Of a DNA stretch of 64,000 nt, positions 6,456 through 18,928 are shown piece by piece. A program made the translations under genes and the position numbers. The notes beneath the pieces are model-generated. The model was not told the origin of the DNA, ran no database searches, and worked only from the letters and a program-made list of their open reading frames with translations. Source of the DNA: Thermoplasmata archaeon (GTDB lineage Archaea; Thermoplasmatota; Thermoplasmata; RBG-16-68-12; JAFNFQ01); assembly GCA_041489255.1 (NCBI GenBank), contig JBGPQV010000001.1, forward strand, positions 256,001-320,000, given 5' to 3'. Within the stretch, counting starts at the first letter, position 1, and every line of letters begins with the position of its first letter.

Positions 6456-7108
6456 TTGTTCCCGCCTCCTCTCAGGTTCCTGATGTCATTGAACGTCTGC
6501 AGGAGCATGTCGGCGCCTATGCGCCTGTACTCATCGGGGTTCTTGCGGAAGGCGTTCCCGCCAACGATAATCTTCACGTCGCGGTGACCAGCTTCCTTGA
6601 TTCTCGCGATGGCCTTCTCGGCCGCCACGATGTTGTAGTAGTTTGACACGCTGATGGCCAGGTACTTCGGTTTGGCGTCAGCAACGGCAGCGACGATGTT
6701 CATCCCCGGCGTGTTGGCGCCCACAAATGTTGCATCGTACCCGCAGAGAGTGAAGAAGTCCGTGACCATTTTCGCCCCGAGCTCGTGAAACTCCTCAACC
6801 GGGCAGACAACGAGGACTTTCTCCCCCTTCTTCCCGCCATACTTCCCATCGCGTTCACGGATGACGTAGGGGTAGCAGCACTCGATAATCGTCCTGACGA
6901 TCGCGCTCTTCACATGCTCCTTCCAGACACATTTATCCGTGTCCTCGAAGGTGCAGGCGATGTTGTTCAAAGCGGGAGCCAGAATCTCATCGTAGAGCGT
7001 GACTACATCCAGTTCCCCCTTAGAGAGTCTGGAGATCACGAAATTCACGCATTTTTCCTTGTCCTCTTGGTCCAACAATGATACGAACTCGCGGTAGAGC
7101 GGGTGCAT
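6452..7108 (-). CDS. Stand-alone cobalamin-binding protein (helical cap + B12 Rossmann domain)
   Basis: WKEH in the cap domain; EFHELG (E/DxHxxG), GANTP, AISVS, IIVGG. Confidence 0.85.
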   Translation of the reverse strand: MHPLYREFVSLLDQEDKEKCVNFVISRLSKGELDVVTLYDEILAPALNNIACTFEDTDKCVWKEHVKSAIVRTIIECCYPYVIRERDGKYGGKKGEKVLVVCPVEEFHELGAKMVTDFFTLCGYDATFVGANTPGMNIVAAVADAKPKYLAISVSNYYNIVAAEKAIARIKEAGHRDVKIIVGGNAFRKNPDEYRRIGADMLLQTFNDIRNLRGGGNK

Positions 7109-7254
7109 GCACCACTCCTGAATCGACGATTGGGAATTCGCTGAGTCGATGCCTCGGTTGACTATATTGTTGTCGCTTTGAGAGCGCCGAGCGCTTGCAC
7201 GGGTCCCGGCAAGGTTTTTCTAGCTCTTGCAGGTCATGTCCATAGAGGGCATGG

Positions 7255-7689
7255 ATGAAACTCACGGAAATCATCGAGGCTTTCAACGAGAACCTCACCA
7301 AGGAATATGGCGCCATATTGCTGTATATTGAGTTGCGGAAGCTGCCCTTGATGGCTAGGAATGTGAAGACCGCCGCTCTGATCTCCAGCCTGGCAGAGGA
7401 CGAAATGCATCATGCGGAGATGCTTGCGGATAAAATCGCCAGCCTCGGCGGAAAATCAACCTGGCAGATAGCGCCATTCGAAAGAAAGTCCACAGTCAAG
7501 GAGACCCTGATACAAATAATCGAGAGCGAAGAACAAGCGATAGAAGACTACTCCAATCTGATTGACAGGCTGGCTGACCAGCCGAAACTCCGGGAGATGC
7601 TCATTGCGATTCTCGAGGACGAGAGACGCCATAAAGAAAGAACAGAGGATCTGTTGAAATCCGTCTCGGGACGCAAGACGAACCCATAG
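7255..7689 (+). CDS. Ferritin-like di-iron four-helix-bundle protein
   Basis: E..AILLY, DEMHH, E.QAIEDY, DERRH carboxylate/His pattern. Confidence 0.85.
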   Translation: MKLTEIIEAFNENLTKEYGAILLYIELRKLPLMARNVKTAALISSLAEDEMHHAEMLADKIASLGGKSTWQIAPFERKSTVKETLIQIIESEEQAIEDYSNLIDRLADQPKLREMLIAILEDERRHKERTEDLLKSVSGRKTNP

Positions 7690-12861: not shown

Positions 12862-13689
12862 ATGCAACTGACACTACAATCCAGGGTGAAGCTCAACAAC
12901 GGCGTCGAGATGCCGATGCTGGGATTGGGCGTCTGGCAGATGGCGCAGGGTATCGAGACACAACGCGCCGTCAAGTCTGCTCTGGGCGTTGGCTATCGCC
13001 TCATCGACACCGCCAAGCTCTACGCGAACGAGAGAGACGTCGGCATCGCCGTCGGGGAGAGCGAGATTCTCCGCGAAGAGGTGTTCGTGACAACCAAGCT
13101 CTGGAACACGGACCACGGCTTCGAGCCTGCGATCAAGGCTTTCAACAGGAGCCTGCACGAACTCGGGTTTGACTATGTCGATCTCTACCTGATACATTGG
13201 CCTGTGGCGCCTCTGAGGGGAGACAGTTGGCGGGCTTTGGTGAGACTCCTGGAAGAGGGGAAGTGCCGGGCAATCGGGGTCAGCAACTACACCGTCGACC
13301 ATCTCCGGGGACTCTTGAGGGACTCCTCAGTAGTGCCGGCGGTCAACCAGGTCGAGTTCAGCCCATTCCTCTTTCAGGAGGAACTCATGGACTCCTGTCA
13401 AGATCACAACATACAGCTTGAGGCCTACAGCCCGTTGACGAAGGGAGCGAGACTAGGCGACCCGAAGCTGAGACCCTTCGCGGCAAAGTATCACAAGACC
13501 GCCGCCCAGATTCTCATCCGATGGGCGTTGCAGCACAACGTCGTCGTGATACCCAAGTCCAGCAGACCGGAAAGGATCCTGGAGAACGGTCAGGTGTTCG
13601 ACTTCGAGATCTCATCCGCCGACATGAAGATGCTCGATTCTCTCGGAGAGGATTATCGCACCGCCTGGGACCCCACGAACACCCGATAG
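12862..13689 (+). CDS. Aldo/keto reductase
   Basis: GYRLIDTAKLY, TTKLW, DLYLIHWP, IGVSNY, NQVE, IPKS. Confidence 0.95.
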   Translation: MQLTLQSRVKLNNGVEMPMLGLGVWQMAQGIETQRAVKSALGVGYRLIDTAKLYANERDVGIAVGESEILREEVFVTTKLWNTDHGFEPAIKAFNRSLHELGFDYVDLYLIHWPVAPLRGDSWRALVRLLEEGKCRAIGVSNYTVDHLRGLLRDSSVVPAVNQVEFSPFLFQEELMDSCQDHNIQLEAYSPLTKGARLGDPKLRPFAAKYHKTAAQILIRWALQHNVVVIPKSSRPERILENGQVFDFEISSADMKMLDSLGEDYRTAWDPTNTR

Positions 13690-13734
13690 CGGGCCCGCGT
13701 GCATCGGCCCGCGTGTCGCTCGCGCCAACTGACC

Positions 13735-13911
13735 TCAGGTTCGTCTGTCCCCGCCCTGGCCCTTCTGCGCCTTGTACCGCGCCGAGTCGAGGTCGAGGTC
13801 CAGGTCCTCTTCCTTCGCCTTGCCCGGGCTGAATACCTTGCCCGCCTCGAACTCCAGCTTCTTGTCCTGCTTCTTCTTCTTGCGCGGCGCCTGCTCAACC
13901 TGCTGTTCCAT
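13735..13911 (-). CDS. Putative Pup/UBact-like small protein modifier (58 aa)
   Basis: Manual translation MEQQVEQAPRKKKKQDKKLEFEAGKVFSPGKAKEEDLDLDLDSARYKAQKGQGGDRRT; GGGAGG Shine-Dalgarno just upstream; overlaps the PafA-family gene by 17 nt; charged and likely disordered; RY-x4-GQ motif. Confidence 0.75.
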   Translation of the reverse strand: MEQQVEQAPRKKKKQDKKLEFEAGKVFSPGKAKEEDLDLDLDSARYKAQKGQGGDRRT

Positions 13912-15193
13912 GTATATCCTCCCATCTGTGAGCGTAGGGGTCGGGTAGGTCTATGCGGCGGCGGTCGCCGTCGCCGACCATCACAGTGGACCAATCGATG
14001 GACTCGATATTGAACCTGTCGCAGATTTCCCGCCTCAGCGCGGCCCTGGTGTCGCTTGGCGGCTCCTTGATCGCCTTGGCGATGTCGCCGTCCTTCAGCA
14101 GTCTATCCACGAGCCCTTTCGACTGCCTCTTGTAGAAGATGCCTCTCTCAGCTCCGACCTCCGAGTACTGCTTGCAGGCCATCATCTCGACATCGGGTCC
14201 GCTCTTGCTCTCCTTGGCCTCCTGGATGGCGAAGTACCTGTCCAGCCATTCGACCCGCCTGGCGAGTTCTTTCGATTTCCTGCCCTCGATGCCATCGAGG
14301 ACTTCCTCGAGGATTTTCAACGCGCGCTTCTCTCGATCATCCTCCACGATGTTCTCTATCTTCGCCAGGTAATATCTCTGGATCTCCACAGGCGAGACCT
14401 TCTTGCCGCTATTGAGGTGAACCTTCCAGGCTTCCGGGTTCGTCTTCTCGACGTTCTCCCACATGTCCTCGACCGGCGACTTGAGGCGGGGAGCGTCGCC
14501 GAGTTCGTCCATCTCCATGAGCTGCAGTATGGCGGTGGTGGTGAAGTGCCGCAGCAGGATCGCCACCTCGTTCATCAGCGCATCGCCGCAGATGACGTGC
14601 AGCCTGCGCCAGCTCGAGCGGTCCGAGTGTGGCTCGTCGCGCGTGTTGATGAGCCCGGTGTTGTGCATGGTCTCGCCGCTGACGACTGCGCTCGTCAAAT
14701 ATATCATCGGCGATAGGACATACTTCCCGTCGAGGATGTCTCCCGCCCCCGTGTAGATGAACCTGGTGCTGAAGTGCGGCACTAGCTCCTTCACGAACTT
14801 CTCAGGGAAGTCCACGGACCTGTCGACGATGTAGTTCTCATGGCTCCCGTAGCTGACTCCCTCGGGTGACGTGTTGTTCTTGAACGCCCAGATCCTCTCC
14901 CCGCTTGAGAGGTACTTCTCCTCCGTCACCCGCCTCAGCCAATCGATCACCTTCTCGCCCGCCTTCTCCCACAGGAGCATGTCGAATGGGTTGCTCACCT
15001 CGCAGGTGCTCAGCTCGAAGTGACCGACGTCGTAGTAGCAGCGAGAGCCGTTGGTGATGAACTCCCCCGCCAGCTGAAGGTCGCTCTCGCTCAACAGCTC
15101 GAGCGCGAGGGTATGAGGGTCGAACCCCTTGGAGGCAAGCTTCTTCGAGTACATCGTGTACTCGAGTTCTGTCCCCTGGATCCTCTTTCTCAT
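13895..15193 (-). CDS. PafA/Dop family (Pup ligase-like) carboxylate-amine ligase
   Basis: GTELEY, FITNGSRCYYDVGHFELSTCE, KAGE, FKNNT...SYGSHENY, TGAG, INTRDEPH, RRLHVICGD, PPSDTRA, IDW, DLPDPY. Confidence 0.92.
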   Translation of the reverse strand: MRKRIQGTELEYTMYSKKLASKGFDPHTLALELLSESDLQLAGEFITNGSRCYYDVGHFELSTCEVSNPFDMLLWEKAGEKVIDWLRRVTEEKYLSSGERIWAFKNNTSPEGVSYGSHENYIVDRSVDFPEKFVKELVPHFSTRFIYTGAGDILDGKYVLSPMIYLTSAVVSGETMHNTGLINTRDEPHSDRSSWRRLHVICGDALMNEVAILLRHFTTTAILQLMEMDELGDAPRLKSPVEDMWENVEKTNPEAWKVHLNSGKKVSPVEIQRYYLAKIENIVEDDREKRALKILEEVLDGIEGRKSKELARRVEWLDRYFAIQEAKESKSGPDVEMMACKQYSEVGAERGIFYKRQSKGLVDRLLKDGDIAKAIKEPPSDTRAALRREICDRFNIESIDWSTVMVGDGDRRRIDLPDPYAHRWEDIHGTAG

Positions 15194-15195
15194 CC

Positions 15196-16752
15196 TTATC
15201 CTACCATCGGGTCTCCGCCGGCGCTCTTGAATATCTCCCTCTGCCTCTTCTCGTAGAGGTAGACATCGGTTATCGCGTGCTCCTTCGACTCTTCCTCAAT
15301 CGCCTGCTGGAAGTCGTTCAGGTTCAGCCCCTCCTTTTCCCGCTCGGCCTTCTTGAGGTTGAGAATCCTCTTGACGTAATTCTTCTTGGCGGTCTTCACG
15401 ACGGCGGCGATGATTGCTCCGGAGACTATGTCCTTCCTCTTGACGGTCTTGATCGCTTCCTTGGCGTCCGGATCGGTTTTCACCCTGACCCACTTGCTCT
15501 CTCCGTAGAACTCATCAAGCACTGCATTCCTCAGGTACCGGATCGCCTTCTCGTGGTCGCCTTGCTCCCTGACGATGCCCGCTTCGACCGGAAGATCGCC
15601 TGCCAAGTAGATTGAGAGGATCTCCTCGGCCATCTTCCTGCTTGGCCTGGGTATCTCGATTATCTCGTCGAACCGACCGGGCCTAAGGAGTGCCGGATCC
15701 AAGAGATCGGCCCTGTTGGTCGCGCCTATCACGAATACGTCGTGAAGCTCCAGCAGGCCGTCCATCTCGCTGAGTATCTGCGCGATTATGTTCTTGTGCA
15801 CACCTGAGGTGTCCATGTAGCCCCTCACGGTGAAGACCGCCTCGATCTCATCGAAGAAGACGATGCTTGGCCGTCTCTCGTGTGCTTGGCGGAATATCTC
15901 CTTGATGAGCCGCTCGCTTTCCCCCACCCACTTGCTCAGCACGTCGGCGATGCTGACGTTGAAGAATGTCATGTCGTTCTCGGTCGCGACGGCCTTCACC
16001 ATGAGGGTCTTCCCGCATCCAGGCGGACCGTGAAGCAGTATGCCCCGGGGCGCCTCCAGGTTGATCTTCTTGAACAGCTTCTGCTCCTTGAACGGGAGAA
16101 TCGTCACATCCCTGATCCTCTCGATAGCCTCCCCCAGTCCGCCAATCTGCGCATAGTGGACATTCGGCTTCTCACCCAGCAGCAGGTTCTTCACTTCAAG
16201 ATTCGGGAGGACCTCGATCAGCTCCATGGTCGGCGGGAGGACAGATATCTGGAACCCGGGCTTCAGCTTCCCGATGATCTCCTTCTCGGCGGAGACCAAC
16301 CTCTTCTCCATGTCGCCTTCGACAGTGATCACAAGCTTGCCTTCGAGGATGTCAGCGACCTTCGCAATCACTCCTTCATTTCTGGCGTTGCTGCTCTCGA
16401 CAATCGCGTATGTCTGCGGATGAACCCAGACGTACTGCCCTATGTTCAGCGTCGACTTGTCGACGAGGCCTGTGCTGACCTTCAGGAGCTCCATCGACCT
16501 CGCGACCACGACCTGGCTCGCGTCGAGATCCGGTCCTTCCTTCCTGACGACGTAGGCATATAGCAGAGGCGGCTGCTTGATCTTGTTGAATTTCTCCTCA
16601 TAGGCCTTGAGCCTATACTCCCTCTCATCCACCTCATAGCGGAAGGCCTGCAGATCCCTCTCGTACTGCCGCTTGAGTCGGTCGAGCTTCTCCTCGTACT
16701 CTTCCTTCATTTCGTCGAGCGATTCCTGATCCTTTTGCTTGGTTTCCGGCAT
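15196..16752 (-). CDS. Mpa/ARC-type proteasome-associated AAA+ ATPase
   Basis: N-terminal coiled coil ending in QPP, then ~130 aa consistent with two OB folds; YAQIGGL, GPPGCGKT, KWVGESE, FFDE, LLRPGRFD, and ARC-like SGAII..VV..AKK. Confidence 0.88.
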   Translation of the reverse strand: MPETKQKDQESLDEMKEEYEEKLDRLKRQYERDLQAFRYEVDEREYRLKAYEEKFNKIKQPPLLYAYVVRKEGPDLDASQVVVARSMELLKVSTGLVDKSTLNIGQYVWVHPQTYAIVESSNARNEGVIAKVADILEGKLVITVEGDMEKRLVSAEKEIIGKLKPGFQISVLPPTMELIEVLPNLEVKNLLLGEKPNVHYAQIGGLGEAIERIRDVTILPFKEQKLFKKINLEAPRGILLHGPPGCGKTLMVKAVATENDMTFFNVSIADVLSKWVGESERLIKEIFRQAHERRPSIVFFDEIEAVFTVRGYMDTSGVHKNIIAQILSEMDGLLELHDVFVIGATNRADLLDPALLRPGRFDEIIEIPRPSRKMAEEILSIYLAGDLPVEAGIVREQGDHEKAIRYLRNAVLDEFYGESKWVRVKTDPDAKEAIKTVKRKDIVSGAIIAAVVKTAKKNYVKRILNLKKAEREKEGLNLNDFQQAIEEESKEHAITDVYLYEKRQREIFKSAGGDPMVG

Positions 16753-16993
16753 CGGATGACCACCGCCGCGAAATATGTCAAGGGCGTCCTGGCGCTCAGA
16801 CTGCCATCTTCGTGCTGAAGATGGCCAAATCCAGAACGCCTGGAACCTAATTATGTCTGAACTGGGGTTATGAACCTTGCGACGAGATTATGGGATTCAG
16901 TAATCTGGAGAGTGCAAGAAGAGTCACCTAATCAATGGAGTGTTGAAAATTATAAACAATGACGAATTTAATCACGGTCAGACGGCTCAGGAA

Positions 16994-18145
16994 TCATGAC
17001 AGCCCGTGATACTTGAACGCTTTCCTCTTGACGCCGTCGACGACCTTCTTCACCGCACTCGACACAGCGCCGCCATCCTGTGTTTCCTCGGAATCCCTCA
17101 GCGTCCCGCCTTTCGGGGCGATCGCGTATGTGATCTTGCAGTACTCCATCCATTCGATCGGCAGGTCGTTTGCCAGCTCCTTCCCGAGCATCCTGGCGAA
17201 GAAGAGAGCCCATATCCTCGGGCAGATCATGATATCATAACCGCCGCCAGTCACCGCCACCCATCGCCCGCCGCCATATCTCCTCGAAATCTCGTCGAAG
17301 TCCCTGCCGATCTCCTCGTAAGCCCGCGTGGTCAGGTTCAGGTGGGCCAGCGGGTCGGCGAAGTGCGCGTCAGCGCCGAGCTGGGTGAACAACACCTCTG
17401 GCTTGAACGCCTCTGCCAAAGGGATGACGATTTCTTTGAAGGCATGCAGATAGCTCGCGTCTCCCGAGTATGGGGGCAACGGGACGTTCACGGTGTAGCC
17501 CTCCCCGTCACCCGTGCCGATCTCATCGATGTCGCCTGTCCCTGGGAATAAATAGTGACCGTCCTCGTGGATTGAGACTTTCAGGACTCGGGGATCGTCG
17601 ATGAATATCGATTGCACACCGTCTGCATGATGAACATCTATGTCGACGTACATCACCCTGCTCAGGCCATATTTTCCGAGCAACCGCTTTATGCCAACGG
17701 CAATATCATTCAGGAGACAAAACCCGGACGCTCTCGCAGGCATGGCATGGTGGAACCCGCCACCTAGGTTCATGGCCTTTTCCGTCTCCCCTTTCGCGAC
17801 CGCATCGCAGGCGAGCATGGTCCCGCCGACATGGAGGCTTGCCGCCTCGAACATCCCTGCGAACACCGGATTGTCCGAGATGCCCAGACCGTGTGAGAAC
17901 GATTGGCCGTCCGGGTGCTCGCTCAAGTGCTCGAGAACCTCTAGGTAGCCTCTGTCGTGCACGGCGATCAGGTCTTCGTATTCGGCGAGGCTGGGTTTCA
18001 TTTCGACCGCGCCCTTCGGCCCTATGAGCCCGTAATCCTGCATGAGCATCTTCGTGAGGAGGAGCCGCTCCTCCCTCATTGCATGCCCTTCCCCGAAATT
18101 GTATTTTAGGTACTTGTCATCATAGACAAGGACAGGGCTGGCCAT
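16994..18145 (-). CDS. Zn-dependent deacetylase (HDAC/AcuC family)
   Basis: GGFHHA, SGFCLLND, DIDVHHADG, QLGADAH, GGGY all intact. Confidence 0.93.
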   Translation of the reverse strand: MASPVLVYDDKYLKYNFGEGHAMREERLLLTKMLMQDYGLIGPKGAVEMKPSLAEYEDLIAVHDRGYLEVLEHLSEHPDGQSFSHGLGISDNPVFAGMFEAASLHVGGTMLACDAVAKGETEKAMNLGGGFHHAMPARASGFCLLNDIAVGIKRLLGKYGLSRVMYVDIDVHHADGVQSIFIDDPRVLKVSIHEDGHYLFPGTGDIDEIGTGDGEGYTVNVPLPPYSGDASYLHAFKEIVIPLAEAFKPEVLFTQLGADAHFADPLAHLNLTTRAYEEIGRDFDEISRRYGGGRWVAVTGGGYDIMICPRIWALFFARMLGKELANDLPIEWMEYCKITYAIAPKGGTLRDSEETQDGGAVSSAVKKVVDGVKRKAFKYHGLS

Positions 18146-18184: not shown

Positions 18185-18928
18185 TCAGATGAGCCATCCA
18201 CCCGTTACGTTGATGACGTCACCGGTGACGAAACCCGCCTCATCGGAGACGAGGAAAGCCACGGCGGCGGCGATGTCCCACGAAGTCCCCGGCCTGCCGA
18301 CCGAGGTCTCTTTGTCTTTGACCTCGAGTGCCTCCTTGACGGTCCTCTCCTTGTCCGCGACGACGCCGGGAGCGACCGCGTTGACCGTGATCCCGCTCCT
18401 CCCGACCTCTCGGGCGAGCGACTTGGTGAACGCGACGACTCCCGCCTTCGCGGCATAGAACGCGGACATGCCGGACGCCCCGTGCGCCCTGTATGCGCCC
18501 GCGGCGGCGAGATTCACTATCCTTCCCCACTTTTGCTTCTTCATGATCGGCAACACCTGCCTGGAGCACAGGAACGCGGCGGTGACGCTCGTGTCCAAGA
18601 CCCTCCGCCATTCACCGAGCGACATCGCCTCCACATCCTTTGTAATCCAATCGCCAACGTTGTTGACCAAGATGTCGAGTCGGCCAAAGTGAGTATGAAC
18701 CTTGTCCACGAGCTCGGCGACCTCCACCTCTCTCGTCACGTCTGCCTTGATGGCCAGAGCCTTGCGGCCCTTCGATTCGATTTCCTTGACAACCTCCAAC
18801 GCCTCTGCCTGACTGTGCAGATAGTTGACGGCGATGTCCGTCCCTTTCTCTGCTAGGGTCAGGGCTATGGCCCTTCCTATGCCTTTCGCTGCCCCCGTGA
18901 CCAGCGCCACGCGTACTGGGAGCGTCAC
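18185..18928 (-). CDS. Short-chain dehydrogenase/reductase (FabG-like, atypical active site)
   Basis: TGAAKGIG, LVNNVG, NAVAPG, VTGG. Confidence 0.88.
   Translation of the reverse strand: MTLPVRVALVTGAAKGIGRAIALTLAEKGTDIAVNYLHSQAEALEVVKEIESKGRKALAIKADVTREVEVAELVDKVHTHFGRLDILVNNVGDWITKDVEAMSLGEWRRVLDTSVTAAFLCSRQVLPIMKKQKWGRIVNLAAAGAYRAHGASGMSAFYAAKAGVVAFTKSLAREVGRSGITVNAVAPGVVADKERTVKEALEVKDKETSVGRPGTSWDIAAAVAFLVSDEAGFVTGDVINVTGGWLI

Follow-up and report, generated by a model that had tools for sequence, protein, structure and literature searches.

Does any archaeon mark its proteins with a small tag of the Pup type? Pupylation is treated as a bacterial process in the passages that bear on it in Iyer 2008, Hecht 2020, Mueller and Weber-Ban 2019 and reviews of 2025 and 2026. 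The question is raised by a locus in the assembly GCA_041489255.1 of a Thermoplasmata archaeon, within a stretch of 64,000 nt (contig JBGPQV010000001.1, positions 256,001 to 320,000, or C1:256001-320000 in our numbering), which is the whole of the DNA analysed and is called the window below. Three genes on the minus strand encode an ATPase, an enzyme of the PafA/Dop family and a tag-like protein of 58 residues (the tag). We consider it probable that they form an archaeal Pup-like tagging and unfolding module, composed of a single undifferentiated PafA/Dop enzyme, a disordered tag of a new family and an unfoldase resembling Mpa/ARC.

A three-gene operon in an archaeal chromosome

The features of the operon are as follows; the genes are open reading frame (ORF) calls, and the residue, tail and intergenic rows were read from the sequence.

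15196..16752, minus strand: ATPase gene, 518 aa
13895..15193, minus strand: gene of the PafA/Dop-family enzyme, 432 aa
13735..13911, minus strand: gene of the tag-like protein, 58 aa
13917..13923, minus strand: Shine-Dalgarno-like GGGAGGA, 5 nt before the tag ATG, within the end of the enzyme gene
13756..13758, minus strand: codon CAG of Q52, the candidate attachment residue
13738..13755, minus strand: six-residue tail GGDRRT after Q52
16753..16993, minus strand: AT-rich intergenic region of 241 nt on the upstream side of the ATPase gene, presumed to be the promoter region of the three-gene unit

A gap of 2 nt separates the ATPase and enzyme genes, and the enzyme and tag genes overlap by 17 nt. 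These coordinates match the three coupled genes described in a first-pass annotation of the same sequence, and the strong Shine-Dalgarno site that it gave to the small ORF is present. GGAGG stands at the same position in 15 of 20 loci by visual reading, which is not independent evidence because the site lies in enzyme coding sequence. The G+C content is even across the region, and no tRNA or Rfam family was found in the window.

The assembly measures 2.74 Mb in 41 contigs, is 96% complete and belongs to the GTDB order RBG-16-68-12, which passages of PMC9038741 and PMC9239135 name Ca. Angelarchaeales and Ca. Yaplasmales respectively. The first-pass annotation had raised the possibility of a bacterial-archaeal chimera. 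This was examined, and chimerism and contamination are excluded by an archaeal RNA polymerase A' gene (rpoA1) on the same contig as the operon, by the exclusively archaeal loci of the relatives and by vertical presence in the order; the module sits in a genuine archaeal chromosome. At 1416 bits the rpoA1 match clears a cut-off of 1043, a level reached among the controls only by the four archaeal genomes. In public records, 42 loci encode close relatives of the enzyme, and every one carries the title of a metagenome-assembled genome (MAG) of Thermoplasmata, Thermoplasmatota, 'Methanomassiliicoccales' or Euryarchaeota; the RBG_16 and EA_ soil/aquifer series are among them, and one locus lies on a contig of 1.13 Mb.

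One metatranscriptome run (X1) contains 8 short contigs that are 90-99% alike to the window. Parts of the ATPase and enzyme genes are covered, as are the junction between the two (15130-15334) and the final 35 nt of the tag ORF with the DNA downstream of it (13600-13769). Coming from a relative, and from an RNA library that possibly includes DNA, these contigs are a weak hint of operon expression.

A single enzyme of the PafA/Dop family

The enzyme matches the Pfam family Pup_ligase (PF03136) with 289 bits against a cut-off of 25, over residues 12-404, and is the only such match in the genome, as befits the single PafA-family enzyme recorded at first pass. It scores 250.2 bits with the NCBIfam model of PafA (TIGR03686, cut-off 551.3) and 246.5 with that of Dop (TIGR03688, cut-off 492.3). 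In bona fide members the two models differ by about 160-305 bits, and in two relatives near the cut-off (P0157 and P0164) by 82-106. Among sequences of the Protein Data Bank (PDB), Dop scores 192 bits and PafA 140. An AlphaFold2 (AF2) model of the enzyme, with a predicted local distance difference test score (pLDDT) of 91 and a predicted template modelling score (pTM) of 0.92, was compared with solved structures in Foldseek, giving template modelling (TM) scores of 0.88-0.89 for Dop, 0.86-0.87 for the PafA-Pup structure 4bjr and 0.80 for PafA 4b0t. The Dop loop of about 40 residues is absent: in the alignment, residue 33 of the enzyme is paired with residue 72 of Dop, and the Dop profile is matched only from position 71.

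Following published passages, we take the conserved D94 of AcelDop, the Dop protein of Acidothermus, which corresponds to D55 of the enzyme, to be the catalytic Asp. The Mg ligands given for AcelDop in passages of PMC8599861 (E8, E10, Y92, E99, H155 and H241) map to E9, E11, Y53, E60, H118 and H199; these residues, D55 and G7 of the GhExE nucleotide motif are invariant in 22 aligned sequences. The PafA/Dop motifs ascribed to the protein by the first-pass annotation are accordingly all in place, in the form of GhExE, every Mg ligand and the Asp. Judged from the alignment, the active site is intact and the enzyme looks active.

Positions that separate Dop from PafA, taken from Table 1 of Hecht 2020 (PMC7947786), were mapped by hand onto the enzyme from the Dop/PafA PDB alignment and checked in the 22-sequence alignment. 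The result is a mosaic, in which F45, V56-G57, S172 and D400 are PafA-like, A42, S62, E174 and the Asp-to-Glu spacing are Dop-like, and most positions of the alpha-loop match neither. The structural model has no long helix in this loop (residues 162-179), where pLDDT is about 70. The enzyme is a candidate tag ligase that may also deamidate. There is precedent for such a combination in a passage of the same study, where a Dop variant carrying PafA residues pupylated from PupQ (Hecht 2020, PMC7947786).

A search over 1.84 billion representatives yielded 131 near-full-length matches, which were kept together with 10 archaeal sequences. Trees were made with FastTree (141 rows) and with IQ-TREE on 44 rows, picked by hand to span the FastTree tree with 97 of the 141 excluded, under LG+C20 with posterior mean site frequencies (PMSF), in a short search with support from the Shimodaira-Hasegawa-like approximate likelihood ratio test (SH-aLRT) only. 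The two trees agree. The Thermoplasmatota enzymes form one clade (support 100), joined on a long branch (100, length 0.77) by three further representatives, one of them labelled as a Nitrososphaerales MAG. The group stands apart from the PafA clade (SH-aLRT 99%) and from the Dop clade (97%), and a representative from Planctomycetota falls on the bacterial side of the tree, away from the archaeal clade. That the archaeal clade predates the split between PafA and Dop is a possibility on this tree, which is unrooted.

NCBI labels within the family also point to a Nitrososphaerales MAG and to a Candidatus Hadarchaeum MAG (among the proteins P0165, P0477, P0152 and P0230). The protein labelled Nitrososphaerales groups with the Thermoplasmatota clade; the labels may reflect mis-binning. 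P0152 and P0157 are the nearest enzymes outside Thermoplasmatota.

A small protein under purifying selection

The tag begins with a Lys-rich N-terminus, followed by the block KLEFEAGKVF, an acidic stretch DLDLDLD and then SARYKAQKG-Q52-GGDRRT. The first-pass annotation had placed RYKAQKGQ in register with the ends of UBact and Pup; the motif is indeed present, but Q52 is internal and the six residues GGDRRT follow, so the terminal register fails. It had also called the tag unannotated. This is true of its name, since none of the 10 members of its public cluster is named and relatives are labelled 'hypothetical protein', but the protein does stand in public collections, including that of NCBI.

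As the first-pass annotation had proposed, small ORFs were re-called downstream of related enzymes, and both the ORF and its motif proved to be conserved. A small ORF follows the enzyme gene in all 80 loci examined with tblastn, two of them cut by contig ends; these loci come from two overlapping collections, and the better count is 45 distinct tag sequences. The median ratio of nonsynonymous to synonymous substitution (dN/dS) is 0.10 for the tag (563 of 703 pairs with defined dS) and 0.22 for the enzyme. The third codon position is variable in 59 of 62 codons, the first and second in 35 and 26. Because of this low ratio, the recurrence of the ORF downstream of the enzyme and the bias of variation to third positions, the tag ORF is a real gene under purifying selection.

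Conserved blocks run through the tags of the order: the Lys-rich start, KLEFEAGKVF, DF[ED]LDL[ED] and [RK][YF]xA[QR]KG-[E/Q]-GGDR[RK]x. Only E (28 tags) or Q (17 tags) follows KG among the 45 distinct tags, and the two have been exchanged at least 10 times, as counted on a tree built from 41 distinct enzymes. Passages of Iyer 2008 give the same use of E or Q for the Pup terminus, but in the tag the residue is internal, with glycines on either side. Each of the 45 distinct tags has a tail, and so do the paralogues described below. Within the order GGDR[RK] is conserved across 43 distinct tags, the last tail residue alone varying. Clades of other classes have tags of the same plan that are 35-53% identical to the window's, most of them with an enzyme about 50% identical. 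Their tails are mostly AGTR[TS][KR]xxx, with GGDRRQALA in one lineage (genome G451), and the first four tail residues, [GA]-G-x-R, are common to all clades and paralogues.

The first-pass annotation had called the operon Pup/UBact-like, but the tag is not a detectable member of either family. The window's tag matches no family in Pfam or NCBIfam at E<=1; 16 diverse tags searched at E<=10 against the same collections met no Pup model, the lone chance matches being FecR, FKBP_C and a sigma factor, each with one tag; and a tag profile searched against the PDB at E<=10 found no Pup chain, only two SH3 chains of tyrosine kinases at E 1.5. In the ESM Atlas the best match, at 0.78, was to unnamed bacterial clusters and lies below the tool's lead level of 0.9. 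Among 5.8 billion proteins the profile matched 396 at E<=10, and this search is silent on distant kin because the 120 matches listed are all close relatives. All that the tag shares with Pup is the motif [RK][YF]xxxKG[EQ]. Because no Pup model and no solved Pup chain matches it, we class the tag in a new family of its own that has a Pup-like motif, and not as a Pup.

Passages of Iyer 2008 characterise Pups as proteins of 50-90 residues beside a PafA homologue, with G[EQ] at the very C-terminus, and the orthologues recovered there all carry this ending (PMC2588565). The tag has 58 residues and is adjacent to the enzyme in all loci examined; its G51-Q52 is followed by GGDRRT.

Further diverged tag-like ORFs, from 1 to 4 per genome, lie away from the operon in 9 of 41 related genomes. 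Examples are L101 2269-2490 (genome G038), L105 1972-2193 (G022), L109 2058-2279 (G033) and L104 2246-2485 (G026), and others occur at loci L100, L102, L103, L106, L107 and L108. Six of these paralogues have 56-84 aa, and the called ORFs of three others have 91, 97 and 142 aa. They share the core F[ED]A[GA]KVF and ARYKA[RS]KG[EQ]GG[DN]R, and their tails, which open with GG[DN]R or AG[NST]R before longer extensions, are for the most part much longer and more variable. Four genomes have a paralogue immediately behind a Peptidase_M29 gene, with an M20 peptidase nearby. A single tag is found in the window's own genome.

Predicted docking of the tag on the enzyme

The enzyme-tag complex was predicted from alignments of our own (22 rows for the enzyme and 16 for the tag), a setting which the calibration of the score does not cover. 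Three runs gave values of ipSAE, an interface score computed from predicted aligned errors, of 0.77, 0.74 and 0.73, and three controls gave 0.00; the mark set for this score is reached by 58 of 80 solved complexes and by 2 of 110 mismatched pairs. Between runs at least 81% of contacts recur, with a partner pLDDT of at least 63. In the model, residues 17-28 and 37-57 of the tag contact the enzyme: Y46 faces enzyme residues 15, 102, 109 and 110, K50 and G51 face residues 113-115, beside the Mg ligand H118, and tail residues 53-57 lie within the interface. The tag is thereby predicted to sit in the Pup-binding groove of the enzyme. Because complexes of PafA and of Dop with Pup have been solved, the score indicates likeness to the Pup binding mode, short of proof for this pair.

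An ATPase of Mpa/ARC architecture

The best NCBIfam match of the ATPase is TIGR03689 (pup_AAA), with 349.6 bits over residues 42-492 and profile positions 25-482 of 512. Models of PAN reach 267.7 bits over residues 128-383 only. In Pfam the protein matches AAA (139 bits) and, at 129-183, Prot_ATP_ID_OB_C, and Mpa chains of the PDB align with it over residues 42-466. Its parts, with beta units resembling the oligonucleotide/oligosaccharide-binding (OB) fold, are as follows.

Residues 4-59: long helix
Residues 64-124 and 128-182: OB-like beta units
Residues 238-368: AAA module
Thereafter: C-terminal helical region

The AF2 model places a helix of 56 residues and two five-strand units ahead of the AAA module. 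Its mean pLDDT is 60.6 (70-88 over residues 10-180) and its pTM 0.38, and the Foldseek TM of about 0.3 is not meaningful; only the Foldseek ranking and the N-terminal secondary structure are used here. In that ranking the top 30 or so matches are all Mpa of M. tuberculosis (E about 1e-27), ahead of Rpt subunits. The model scores, the alignment with Mpa and the Foldseek ranking uphold the earlier assignment of this protein to the Mpa/ARC and not the PAN architecture.

PAN was considered as an identity for the ATPase and rejected: it scores 258.2 bits with TIGR01242 against a cut-off of 500, and a true PAN is encoded elsewhere in the genome, on contig C28, at 582.8 bits. The genome also encodes two Cdc48-type genes.

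The first-pass annotation supposed that the module uses the native archaeal 20S core. One alpha and one beta gene are indeed encoded elsewhere, on contigs other than that of the operon, but their use by this ATPase is unsupported. Mpa docks on the 20S alpha ring through a C-terminal GxYx (PMC6466877), whereas the ATPase ends in ...GGDPMVG. DPMVG is invariant in the orthologues of the order, and such strict conservation suggests some function other than the known docking.

Distribution of the module

Sampling of the order found the enzyme in 45 of 64 genomes. In the remaining orders of the class the count is 0 of 337, and in a phylum sample 21 of 400 further genomes, belonging to other classes, have it. 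Among the 41 nearest genomes, 23 have enzyme, tag and ATPase, 15 have none of them and 3 have some; the three partial cases are contig-end fragments or a weak match of paralogue grade. Every genome of family f2 (6) and of family f3 (8) is among those without the three genes. Being together or all absent in 38 of 41 related genomes, the genes behave as the conserved module that the first-pass annotation had expected. In the other classes the ATPase gene is adjacent in G451, two genes away in G418, and on other contigs in G448 and G408.

In the second clade a gene for a small helix-turn-helix (HTH) protein lies directly upstream of the enzyme gene (L097 7184-7513, L075 5611-5958 and L099 ~6944-7426). 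The protein has weak matches to HTH_23, IclR and TrmB and may be a local regulator. In G418 a gene resembling uracil-DNA glycosylase (UDG) also lies between ATPase and enzyme.

Comparison with known tagging systems

The closest comparison is with the actinobacterial system of Pup, PafA, Dop, Mpa/ARC and PrcBA. The enzyme family, its fold, the Mg ligands and the catalytic Asp are the same; the ATPase likewise combines a coiled coil, a double OB and one AAA module, and is nearest to Mpa; and a small, charged, probably disordered protein stands beside the enzyme, carries an aromatic-x-x-x-K-G-[E/Q] motif with alternation of E and Q, and is predicted to lie in the Pup groove. The differences are also considerable. 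Here there is one enzyme and not two, which lies outside both clades, scores equally with both models and has no Dop loop; the tag is undetected by Pup models, with an internal E/Q and a conserved tail; the locus has no 20S genes, and the ATPase ends in DPMVG in place of GxYx; and the host has PAN and Cdc48 besides.

Systems of Planctomycetes and other non-actinobacterial bacteria with a single homologue resemble the archaeal one in that their enzyme is about as far from PafA as it is from Dop. Passages of Hecht 2020 (PMC7947786) give such homologues 29-31% identity to PafA and Dop and use them as an outgroup, and the Planctomycetota representative in our tree scores 332 bits with the PafA model and 323 with the Dop model. 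As in the archaeal locus, there is no linkage to proteasome genes, according to passages of Iyer 2008 (PMC2588565). The same source describes four inserted transmembrane segments in planctomycete ligases and linkage to membrane proteins, neither of which is seen here. The representative's enzyme also differs in its place on the bacterial side of the tree.

UBact, which Lehmann et al. reportedly described in 2017, is said to be a small tag other than Pup beside PafA/Dop homologues in some Gram-negative phyla. Its loci carry a pair of enzymes together with 20S genes, and E/Q stands at the end of the tag. These systems share with the archaeal locus a small tag of a sequence distinct from Pup, next to PafA/Dop homologues outside Actinobacteria; set against their description, and not their sequences, the archaeal locus differs in having one enzyme, no 20S genes and an internal E/Q. 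UBact is mentioned in a passage of PMC11354881.

Tags of the SAMP, Urm1, ubiquitin and UFM1 type are likewise protein tags in archaea, and passages of PMC2948915 and PMC4569737 state that those of the SAMP/Urm1/ubiquitin type can feed the proteasome. They differ in kind: these modifiers have the beta-grasp fold, E1-type adenylation and a C-terminal Gly-Gly, whereas the module described here would pair a disordered tag and a Glu side chain with an enzyme of glutamine-synthetase type.

Neighbouring genes and other reading frames

Directly upstream of the ATPase gene lies a gene of the Hist_deacetyl family of Zn amidohydrolases (16994-18145, minus strand; 299.8 bits). The gene keeps an upstream, same-strand position in 16 of 19 loci of the same order longer than 9 kb, directly in 15 and farther away in L063, and usually follows a gene for a short-chain dehydrogenase/reductase (SDR); in the 15 loci that are not near-copies of the window the gene product is 45-56% identical. 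Enzymes of this family cleave N-epsilon-acyl-lysine amides, which makes the gene a speculative candidate for tag removal, but it may equally be a matter of plain synteny.

The flanks are an aldo/keto reductase gene (12862-13689, plus strand; 182 bits), convergent with the tag gene, and an SDR-like gene (18185-18928, minus strand). The former is shared only with a near-identical sister genome, and no functional link is suggested for either. Many long antisense or out-of-frame ORFs occur in 13650-16600, for example one of 227 aa at 15880-16563 (plus strand) and another at 13772-13948 (plus strand). They are typical of DNA with 58% G+C and have no support as genes.

Proposed mechanism and alternatives

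We propose the following course of events. The tag would dock in the Pup-binding groove of the enzyme through its acidic-helical part and the RYxxxKG segment, and the Gly-flanked residue 52 (G-[E/Q]-G-G) would enter the active site, where ATP would phosphorylate its side-chain carboxylate. In tags of the Gln type, such as the window's, the amide would be deamidated first or turned straight into the acyl-phosphate, in the manner of Dop. A lysine of a target protein would then attack, giving a gamma-glutamyl-epsilon-lysine isopeptide. Because this chemistry would use the side chain, the tail need not be removed, and we lean very slightly towards a tail still attached at ligation, over prior cleavage after E/Q. 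The coiled coil of the ATPase would recognise tagged proteins, which would then be unfolded; hand-over to the 20S core encoded elsewhere might follow, although the C-terminus of the ATPase gives no sign of docking. A fuller version of the proposal, which we think less likely than not, is offered tentatively: the single enzyme would ligate the disordered tag to lysines through the internal Glu/Gln side chain with the tail kept, the unfoldase, having no docking motif, would remodel its substrates without obligatory degradation by 20S, and the paralogues would make up a small family of modifiers.

Several observations weigh against an archaeal module of the Pup type. The enzyme scores under half of both the PafA and the Dop equivalog cut-offs, and the ATPase falls below the cut-off of 504.75 for TIGR03689 (Mpa/ARC), which 0 of 41 relatives pass, and is devoid of the GxYx docking motif. 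No Pup model or PDB Pup chain matches the tag at E<=10, and the motif they share is short. The E/Q of the tag is internal whereas described Pups end in G[EQ], and a C-terminal domain, which closes the active site on one side according to a passage of PMC8599861, could exclude a tail. The ATPase gene of the second clade does not always neighbour the enzyme gene, and G443, a genome 95% complete, has the enzyme without an ARC-like match. The high score of the predicted complex may be explained by the solved PafA-Pup and Dop-Pup complexes and not by binding of this pair itself. Lastly, the expression signal comes from one metatranscriptome, as short contigs of a relative, and conjugates are something that we infer.

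The rival account that fares best would make the tail a propeptide, as on the precursors of ubiquitin and SAMP, which a protease removes by cutting after E/Q52; canonical pupylation on the terminal residue would follow. We think this somewhat unlikely, though a good deal speaks for it. Tails vary in length and sequence by clade and paralogue, from 6 or 9 up to about 25-47 residues, the small residues [GA]G come right after E/Q, and paralogues in four genomes stand behind a Peptidase_M29 gene and near an M20 peptidase; passages on known Pups, moreover, have them end in G[EQ], with an active site closed on one side. However, [GA]-G-x-R is conserved everywhere, and GGDR[RK] in 43 tags, which is more than a propeptide bound for removal should require. 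In the window the operon has no peptidase gene linked to it, and M29 peptidases are, by family name, aminopeptidases and not obvious C-terminal processors. The complex model puts the tail on the enzyme, and ligation through a side chain would need no free alpha-carboxylate.

Alternatively, the small protein could be a substrate, regulator or adaptor of the enzyme, with residue 52 amidated, deamidated or joined to a small amine, which would switch its binding to the ATPase; no protein conjugates would then form. Such a role would suit the origin given in published passages for the enzyme family, from ligases of the glutamine synthetase type, which couple small amines to a gamma-carboxylate, and it would suit the lack of detectable Pup homology, the internal position of the reactive residue and the fact that binding to the enzyme is the sole interaction backed by a model. 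We nevertheless judge it improbable. The architecture copies the pupylation set in passages of Iyer 2008, namely an unfoldase with coiled coil and double OB, a Pup-ligase enzyme and an adjacent disordered acidic protein; the enzyme keeps D400, the PafA-specific Asp, and a PafA-like V-G after the catalytic Asp; and no amine-supplying gene is linked to the operon.

That the small ORF is a mere by-product, whether of translational coupling, as a leader-like peptide or as an artefact of annotation, so that only the ATPase and the enzyme matter, might be suspected from its short length, low complexity (K-rich and D/E-rich), 17-nt overlap and want of a family match, but this reading is disfavoured to the point of being very improbable, given a dN/dS below that of the enzyme, variability at third codon positions, retention in three clades diverged to 35-53% identity with the window's tag, independent tag paralogues elsewhere in relatives, and a predicted interface that is specific, with controls at 0.00.

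Significance

No description of an archaeal Pup-like system was found in the literature searched, supplementary files lying outside the search, and the same literature contained no paper on the UBact-like loci in ANME-1 that the first-pass annotation mentioned. We take the KEGG orthology entries K13527 and K13571 to be mpa and pafA respectively. Both are given in section 15 of PMC9038741 (Diamond 2022) as enriched in Ca. Angelarchaeales and as 'components of the archaeal proteosome', in a passage that mentions neither a tag nor pupylation. No report of an archaeal Pup appears in the main text of PMC9239135 or of PMC9038741, where Pup, PafA, proteasome and ubiquitin were looked for, and archaea have 0 occurrences in Hecht 2020 (PMC7947786). 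In databases the enzymes bear the name 'PafA2 family protein' (NCBI) and the ATPase that of 'proteasome-associated ATPase' (JGI).

The locus points to an undescribed mode of protein marking in archaea, with one enzyme and a tailed tag. To our knowledge, archaeal tagging is otherwise known only from beta-grasp modifiers. If the module works as we propose, archaea would possess a second and mechanistically unrelated tagging system, in an order that is widespread in soil and sediment. The enzyme would offer a natural, undifferentiated form for the origin of the ligase and hydrolase activities of PafA and Dop, a subject for which Hecht 2020 used mutagenesis, and the system would tell whether the side chain of an internal Glu can be the point of attachment.

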